Shown here piece by piece: positions 50,879 through 51,092 of a DNA stretch of 64,000 nucleotides. The notes below the pieces were generated by a model that had not been told where the DNA came from, searched no databases, and was given only the letters and a program-made list of their open reading frames with translations. Made by a program: the position numbers and the translations under genes. Origin of the DNA: Escherichia coli (GTDB taxonomy: Bacteria > Pseudomonadota > Gammaproteobacteria > Enterobacterales > Enterobacteriaceae). The stretch lies in the NCBI RefSeq assembly GCF_003334255.1, contig NZ_QOWU01000005.1, one strand, 5' to 3'. The stretch's first letter is position 1; every line of letters begins with the position of its first letter.

Positions 50879-51092
50879 TCGTGGCGGCATCATTATATTC
50901 TGAATATGTAAGATCGAAGGCTGTTCCGTTCACTTGATGTTCCTCGCTACTATGGAACGCTCAAGCCGGTGAACGTGCCAGGGTGGCTCAATCTCCACCA
51001 CCCTGGCAACCCGGGCTCCCGGCGGTAAATCGCCGATGGCGCGGTTCCCTCATCTTATTCCTTTCGGCTATTGGGTAAAATGACCGATACCA

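Follow-up and report, generated by a model that had tools for sequence, protein, structure and literature searches.

Genomic context of the asmA-yegH intergenic region

The DNA analyzed in this study, hereafter the window, is a stretch of 64,000 nucleotides from Escherichia coli, in which the segment 50780-51140 is 100% identical to K-12-type chromosomes (2139438-2139798). This segment includes the intergenic gap between asmA and yegH (50820-51092), two genes that are convergent in MG1655, asmA ending at 50819 and the yegH stop codon occupying 51093-51095 on the minus strand. The main features of the region are the following:

48966-50819, plus strand: asmA, convergent with yegH (open reading frame list and mapped MG1655 annotation)
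50843-50880, no strand assigned: REP palindromic unit, a separate neighbour outside the repeat unit (14-nt inverted repeat and partial naRNA4 matches)
50921-51076, minus strand (the strand of yegH, taken as RNA sense from relatives): truncated unit that retains the "module" half of a dispersed repeat of about 260 nt (nhmmer, family profile)
51093-52676, minus strand: yegH, coding for a TerC-family membrane protein (open reading frame list and mapped MG1655 annotation)

The repeat element begins 16 nt past the yegH stop, in the RNA sense of yegH, and lies 40 nt from the REP, which is downstream in the yegH sense and whose palindrome was placed at 50844-50876 by the repeat finder. Partial matches to the REP-derived naRNA4, with 31.6 and 19.6 bits against a gathering score of 59.5, span positions 50843-50915.

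Inverted repeats, folding, and expression signals

Two inverted repeats, both identified by the repeat finder and by covariation in an alignment of relatives (A4, see below), lie within the element:

50927-50975, minus strand: helix 1, a 7-bp stem (50927-50933 / 50969-50975) with a variable 35-nt loop
50976-51008, minus strand: helix 2, a perfect 11-bp stem (50976-50986 / 50998-51008) with an 11-nt loop

The arms of helix 1 are CGTTCAC and GTGAACG, and those of helix 2, TGCCAGGGTGG and CCACCCTGGCA, form a perfect 11-nt inverted repeat. The original prediction had described a perfect stem of 9-10 bp at 50967-50997; the stem is real and comprises 11 bp, but those coordinates were about 10 nt too far to the left. 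Its second inverted repeat, cgttcac/gtgaacg, was located by the repeat finder exactly at the arms of helix 1. An 11-nt perfect inverted repeat appeared in approximately 0.3% of first-order Markov simulations of the 202-nt segment, and about one is expected by chance per 64-kb window; the 11-nt repeat alone is therefore weak evidence. When the folding of a 181-nt stretch was compared with that of shuffled sequences, z-scores of -3.3 for the minus strand (fold energy of -70.8 kcal/mol) and -3.95 for the plus strand were obtained, and none of the 200 shuffles was as stable on either strand.

Neither sigma-70-like promoters nor terminators consisting of a stem and a T-run or U-run were detected on either strand between 50600 and 51400, which agrees with the lack of a flanking T-run noted at the outset. 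The Rfam scan (E ≤ 10, window 50000-52000) gave no match in the segment, the only matches being those of naRNA4 beside it, and TwoAYGGAY, an Rfam motif with a gathering score of 43 bits, had no match in 50000-52000 even at E ≤ 10. The statement that the segment holds no convincing ORF was also borne out: the sole ORF of at least 30 aa in the asmA-yegH gap has 31 aa and a GTG start, and a 21-aa minus-strand ORF (AAGGA...AUG) was rejected as a gene because its AUG is changed to CUG, CCG, ACG, or UCG in most other copies. The K-12 segment contains no conserved ORF.

The segment belongs to a dispersed repeat family

A sensitive BLAST search of 5426 complete E. coli genomes, with the 208-nt segment as query, detected the orthologous locus and, in addition, 75%-identical copies elsewhere, the paralogous copies being located at proX-ygaY, mmuM-tauA, aqpZ-lysO, and yohP-dusC. 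In a six-way alignment, the copies had in common a module of about 155 nt that corresponds to window positions 50921-51076 and from which the family profile was built. Indeed, nhmmer matched profile positions 2-156 to 50921-51076 with an E-value of 9.7e-41. The window copy shares 86% identity with the mmuM-tauA copy and 76% with the proX copy. Among the options put forward in the original prediction, that of a degenerate repeat is the one upheld by the nhmmer match, the paralogues, and the alignment: the segment is a truncated copy of a dispersed family. Two subfamilies could be distinguished, and both helices differ between them by compensatory changes, CGTTCAC/GTGAACG vs. CGCTCCT/AGGAGCG in helix 1, and GCCAGGGTGG/CCACCCTGGC vs. 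GCAGGGGGCGG/CCGCCCCCTGC in helix 2.

The number of places occupied per E. coli genome has a median of 3 and a maximum of 10. Three copies are present in K-12, namely the truncated one at asmA-yegH and two full-length units, both unannotated. The unit at yohP-dusC (retrieved locus L132, 3113-3378; MG1655 2229112-2229377) lies in sense just past the dusC stop, and that at lysO-aqpZ (L131, 2513-2796; MG1655 915012-915295) is antisense to both neighbours. A taxonomic scan of one genome per species, performed with a 23-base pattern from the most conserved block, revealed at least 120 family loci, often with 5-13 copies per genome, and about 15 genera among the matches listed. These matches include Enterobacter, Lelliottia, Leclercia, Atlantibacter, Kluyvera, Citrobacter, Pseudocitrobacter, Silvania, Superficieibacter, Phytobacter, Huaxiibacter, Pseudescherichia, and E. 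albertii. Matches on plasmids were mostly chromosomes filed as plasmids, among them a Klebsiella pneumoniae chromosome with 18 places. Conservation across Enterobacteriaceae, which had been named as a check on the segment, is thus found in many genera, so that the lack of conservation outside close relatives, which would have counted against the original prediction, was not observed; it is a conservation of the family, not of the locus. A phage origin of the repeat was also considered and discarded, with no match in 50,697 phage records.

Architecture and covariation of the full-length unit

The similarity between copies runs approximately 100 nt past the module, and the complete unit measures about 255-265 nt and comprises five helices. 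The extra part contains two hairpins, with the loop sequence ATCC(A/C)T on the module strand and CA(G/U)GGA(U/C)G on the other, the GGA being essentially invariant. On the window-minus strand, the unit has a 5' domain, in which a closing stem surrounds the two GGA-loop hairpins, followed at the 3' side by the module with its two helices. One strand of the closing stem is still present in the window:

51027-51045, minus strand: nearly invariant block AAATCGCCG...CGCGGT; it provides the 3' strand of the outer closing stem of full-length units, and its partner is deleted in the window (invariant columns in alignments A2 and A4)

In full-length units, this block, which also served as the pattern of the collection scan, pairs with A4 columns 24-33.

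Alignment A4 comprises 74 diverged units, for which RNAalifold predicted 54 pairs, half of them (27) with compensatory, two-sided changes. Across the 17 pairs of helices 1 and 2, 96.8% of the cells are standard pairs, vs. 32-42% after the 3' partner has been shifted by 1-3 columns. Two-sided changes in these helices amount to 141 cells, vs. 35 in shuffles, and affect 9 of the 17 pairs; their covariation score was reached by none of 500 shuffles. Taken separately, helix 2 (columns 196-207 / 223-233) has 95.4% of its cells paired and two-sided changes in 6 of 10 pairs, and the corresponding values for helix 1 (columns 235-241 / 278-284) are 98.8% and 3 of 7. This pattern of substitutions is the decisive evidence: the stems in the window are real, selected helices, belonging to the family and not to the asmA-yegH locus. 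The opposite idea, that the inverted repeats arose by chance in ordinary intergenic DNA, could appeal to the one perfect 11-nt repeat expected per 64 kb. However, both stems align column for column with compensated helices in 74 relatives, and the idea is refuted by this covariation together with the profile match (E of about 1e-40), its probability being practically nil.

A deletion allele at asmA-yegH

Comparison with a full-length allele of the same locus defined one more feature of the window:

51070-51077, no strand assigned: deletion junction ATTGGGTA

Strain U1 (L003) reads ...GGCTATCGGGTA[171 bp]...GCATTGGGTAAAATGG where K-12 reads GGCTATTGGGTAAAATGA, and the 171 bp missing from K-12 include the 5' strand of the closing stem together with the two GGA hairpins. 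From these junction sequences, the K-12 state is a 171-bp deletion between AT(C/T)GGGTA direct repeats. In E. albertii, a full unit is found at the same site, between orthologous asmA and yegH flanks, and therefore the deletion is derived. A unit was accordingly in place at asmA-yegH before the split of E. coli and E. albertii. The lineage leading to K-12 later lost the stretch between the AT(C/T)GGGTA repeats, and with it the two GGA hairpins and one of the strands that form the closing stem, so that the module alone was left behind.

The full-length allele is carried by 1425 of the 5426 E. coli genomes. At least 80% of the segment is present in 3937 of them, which leaves approximately 2500 with the K-12-type deletion, and the remaining genomes show other states at the locus, O157:H7 being an example. 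Since about 2500 genomes share the truncated allele at 97-100% identity, this allele is old and stable. In O157:H7, the repeat is absent from the asmA-yegH gap (L010, 809-1427), which contains instead genes for a RelE/ParE-family toxin and an HTH antitoxin, a replacement suggesting that this intergenic region is a polymorphic hot spot. Family copies are also found at the 3' end of yegH in Lelliottia (L077, 5061-5652), in the orientation opposite to that of E. coli, and at the 3' end of asmA in Enterobacter asburiae (L026, 11792-12215), in the same orientation as in E. coli. These copies reflect either an ancient residence or the repeated targeting of the terminator region of the gene pair.

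Genomic behaviour and mobility of the family

With ORFs of at least 150 aa as gene proxies, the intergenic regions that contain single units were convergent in 28 cases, tandem in 18, and divergent in 2. In the tandem regions, the unit was in sense with the upstream gene in 14 cases and antisense in 4. Comparison of the sequences upstream of the E. coli copies revealed nothing in common, and thus no promoter belongs to the element itself. At aqpZ-lysO, the unit was found in opposite orientations and with different flanks (L008, 1290-1770, vs. L009, 1330-1850) in O157:H7 and strain GTEN_24, as a result of either independent acquisition or inversion at one locus. At proX-ygaY, a two-REP BIME in K-12 (MG1655; L004, 1626-1816) stands against a full unit in eco-241 (L002, 3861-4312); in this filled/empty comparison, the whole intergenic segment is exchanged and no clean insertion scar was detected.

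Many loci contain two inverted units with their module ends facing outward, spanning 459-637 bp. Seven of these composites, from Lelliottia, Silvania, and Pseudocitrobacter (L050, L071, L072, L073, L076, L107, and L019), carry TAATGC(C/T)(A/G)GTCAGTTAAG inverted repeats at both ends. These terminal inverted repeats (TIRs) match the ends of IS4 (L133, 1810-1830 and 3210-3229) over approximately 18-20 nt; an assignment as IS1-like was dropped, a plasmid search having identified the IS4 ends. The composites are flanked by target duplications of 9-14 bp (6 bp in L019), and IS4 on an IncF plasmid shows a 12-bp duplication. Judging from these ends, part of the family travels as the cargo of an IS4-type MITE. 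The duplications of six of the seven composites lie within GC-rich, terminator-like hairpins with loops of 3-4 nt, and the IS4-mobilised MITE thus appears to prefer terminator hairpins. The TIR TAATGCTGGTCAGTTAAG, searched with up to 3 mismatches, was present in 13 of 133 sources, approximately 10% of the retrieved loci; neither the window nor any E. coli locus contained it. Likewise, no direct repeat that could represent a target-site duplication was found flanking 50921-51076.

Units are themselves interrupted by other elements. One and the same point of hairpin 2, GGTAACAT^ATCCCTG, has received an IS110-family element (346-aa transposase; L067, 1592-2632) in E. coli as well as two Kluyvera loci, with duplication of AT. 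The units split in this way lie at 1436-1622 and 2998-3098 in L007, at 623-723 and 2097-2291 in L065, and at 1422-1522 and 2897-3089 in L067. By analogy with REP and IS621, the repeat seems to be a specific IS target. An origin of the repeat as the bridge RNA of an IS110-family element, such as that whose transposase lies beside the yohP copy, was rejected, the IS being a secondary insertion that splits the unit at a fixed site. In Atlantibacter, both outer ends of the copies carry 2-6 or more tandem 17-18-mers (GGTGGAATTGTTCCGTTC), inverted with respect to each other and variable in number (L084, 2280-2345 and 2960-3020; L085, 11560-11712; also L083, L095, and L096), and these arrays resemble arrays of protein-binding sites.

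These data bear on the possibility that the helices act as DNA, in the form of hairpins, cruciforms, or protein sites that serve mobilisation or a host protein, with the K-12 remnant as what is left of such a DNA site, possibly a recombination hot spot. Compensatory changes suit DNA hairpins equally well, and the G-U excess (see below) is weak. The outer-end motif of the module, (G)TGGAATTGTTCCGTTC, is repeated in tandem 2-6 times at both ends of the Atlantibacter copies; the asmA-yegH, aqpZ-lysO, and proX-ygaY intergenic regions are all polymorphic; and hairpin 2 is the precise target of the IS110-family element. Nevertheless, transposition of the IS4 type, the sole mobility signature found, requires only TIRs and no internal hairpins, and the K-12 copy has no TIR. 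Furthermore, the strictly conserved CA(G/U)GGA(U/C)G loops suit a known RNA-binding motif on one strand only. A role at the DNA level is, in our opinion, quite unlikely.

Full-length units resemble the TwoAYGGAY motif

The orphan motif TwoAYGGAY (Rfam RF01731), known from gut metagenomes, gamma-proteobacteria, and Clostridiales, was judged by its discoverers to be probably an RNA and not cis-regulatory (Weinberg et al., 2010; PMC2864571). Its loops match the CsrA-binding motif, and binding of CsrA has been proposed (Gardner and Eldai, 2015; PMC4333381); Rfam clan CL00106 groups it with RsmW. On the strand opposite to the module strand, cmscan aligned TwoAYGGAY from end to end (positions 1-168) with full-length copies of the repeat. 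Scores of 31.5, 30.6, and 28.2 bits were obtained for E. coli copies, about 31 bits for each of the two full-length K-12 copies (yohP-dusC and lysO-aqpZ), 35.8 bits for an Atlantibacter copy, and 49.2 bits, above the gathering score of 43, for a Pseudocitrobacter copy. The window segment is absent from Rfam, and the full-length K-12 copies are below the Rfam threshold.

Because TwoAYGGAY aligns on that strand of full-length relatives, the RNA sense of the repeat corresponds to window minus, i.e., the yegH strand. The loop motif is the main basis of this strand assignment. G-U cells outnumber A-C cells (76:25), which points in the same direction, but weakly, as the count is dominated by one pair, with 19 pairs showing G-U and 17 showing A-C.

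The full-length units, and not the window copy, are the candidates for a role at the RNA level such as CsrA binding, given the likeness of their loops to the published motif: both GGA hairpins of the candidate CsrA-binding RNA fall within the 171 bp deleted from the window copy. A literature search returned no relevant CsrA CLIP reports near aqpZ, yohP, or yegH, and no relevant reports of sRNAs or UTRs for yegH or asmA. An independent, unannotated small RNA gene, another of the options originally offered for the segment, would fit the covariation-backed conserved structure, as well as the relatives that match a motif regarded as probably RNA and not cis-regulatory. However, the segment has no promoter- or terminator-like site on either strand, its copies share no upstream sequence, and it has no Rfam match, the part that matches TwoAYGGAY having been deleted. 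This option was not sustained, and we consider it very improbable.

Interpretation of the K-12 copy

The segment is a decayed and truncated copy of a dispersed Enterobacteriaceae intergenic repeat of about 260 nt, and most likely an inert relic. We infer that the K-12 remnant has no function of its own. Transcription of yegH would be likely to read through into it because no terminator lies between the two, and the remnant would then form a GC-rich, structured 3' tail within the first 170 nt after the yegH stop, which could slow 3' exonucleases as could the neighbouring REP. Since its helices are under selection in the family, the remnant could also retain whatever the module does.

A stronger proposal is that the remnant is a functional yegH 3'-UTR element, whose helices protect the 3' end of the mRNA or form a processing or termination point and thereby set yegH expression. 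The position just past the stop, the sense orientation with no intrinsic terminator in between, and the stable minus-strand fold are in line with it, and so are the predominance of sense units behind the upstream gene in tandem regions and the K-12 yohP-dusC copy, which likewise lies behind dusC. By contrast, the element is antisense to its flanking genes at K-12 lysO-aqpZ, and its orientation flips between strains; its absence or replacement at asmA-yegH is tolerated in about a quarter of the E. coli genomes; the REP 40 nt downstream could serve equally; and there is no U-tract. The original suggestion of a yegH 3'-UTR element therefore stands as regards position and strand, and a regulatory role specific to this locus is unsupported because the same element is found in unrelated intergenic regions and in either orientation. 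Such a function in yegH expression is unlikely.

Interpreting the segment as a relic explains a structured, unannotated stretch of the E. coli chromosome and cautions against its annotation as an sRNA or as a riboswitch-like element of the TerC-family gene yegH. The K-12 locus itself matters little; the family is more useful. In this respect, we give a rather small chance to a broader view, according to which the family could carry a functional RNA module, consisting of a two-hairpin putative CsrA site and a 3' domain with two conserved helices, to the 3' sides of unrelated genes across Enterobacteriaceae. It would be spread in part by IS4 transposase and would create 3' UTRs that titrate CsrA or are regulated by it. 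The K-12 allele would then be a "CsrA-site-less" variant, and the module retained in it might act by itself, possibly through protection from exonucleases or binding of another protein. If this were true, the K-12 allele and the full allele, which segregate in E. coli (about 46% vs. 26% of genomes), would make a ready-made test pair. The natural full and truncated alleles of asmA-yegH also lend themselves to a test of the published proposal that TwoAYGGAY would bind CsrA.

Comparison with known repeats and RNAs

The family shares with REP/BIME elements a GC-rich, palindromic, intergenic nature, a location 3' of genes that are mostly convergent or co-directional, polymorphism among strains, and the targeting by IS110-family elements (PMC3184786). 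In contrast, REPs measure about 35-40 nt and have another consensus, whereas the unit described here has about 260 nt and five helices. Membership of the window element among REPs was not supported, since the naRNA4 matches lie outside it and its stems are unrelated in sequence. REP-like palindromes of the CCCTCTCCC...GGGAGAGGG type were observed on both sides of Enterobacter units, and the K-12 copy is likewise found near a REP, 40 nt away. The family is not included in the catalogue of bacterial repeats by Delihas (2011; PMC3184786).

With IS-mobilised MITEs such as ERIC, Nezha, and Correia, the family has in common the IS4-type TIRs and the 9-14-bp duplications of seven composites. It differs in that TIRs are found in about 10% of the loci, in that the E. 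coli copies have neither TIR nor target-site duplication, and in that the interior is not derived from IS4.

Another element, RSA, is reportedly about 152 bp long according to the K-12 genome paper, and is said to have 6 copies in K-12. Compared by length and description only, RSA/BEE95 may be the present family: both are dispersed, enterobacterial, intergenic, and low-copy, and the reported length of about 152 bp is near that of the 155-nt part common to the K-12 copies, whereas the reported 6 copies in K-12 differ from the 3 found here. RSA or BEE95 was described in the 1990s under the designation "dispersed enterobacterial intergenic elements".

As in CsrB and CsrC, GGA is displayed in hairpin loops, and the two sites per unit would suit one CsrA dimer (PMC4333381). 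CsrB and CsrC, however, are each encoded by one gene that has its own promoter, and they contain many GGA sites, whereas each repeat unit has two and lacks a promoter, and the K-12 asmA-yegH copy has zero GGA-loop sites.

In architecture, the full-length units resemble TwoAYGGAY, with a closing stem around two adjacent hairpins with CA(G/U)GGA(U/C)G loops. Most copies, with 28-36 bits, are below threshold and are therefore not called by Rfam-based annotation. The units differ from the Rfam model by an extra 3' domain of about 110 nt with two conserved helices that are outside it, and by being dispersed repeats, often arranged as inverted pairs; the window copy lacks the TwoAYGGAY part. E. coli K-12 thus contains two unannotated full units with paired GGA-loop hairpins just under the TwoAYGGAY threshold of Rfam, and this orphan motif is linked here to a dispersed, partly IS4-mobilised repeat of the Enterobacteriaceae.
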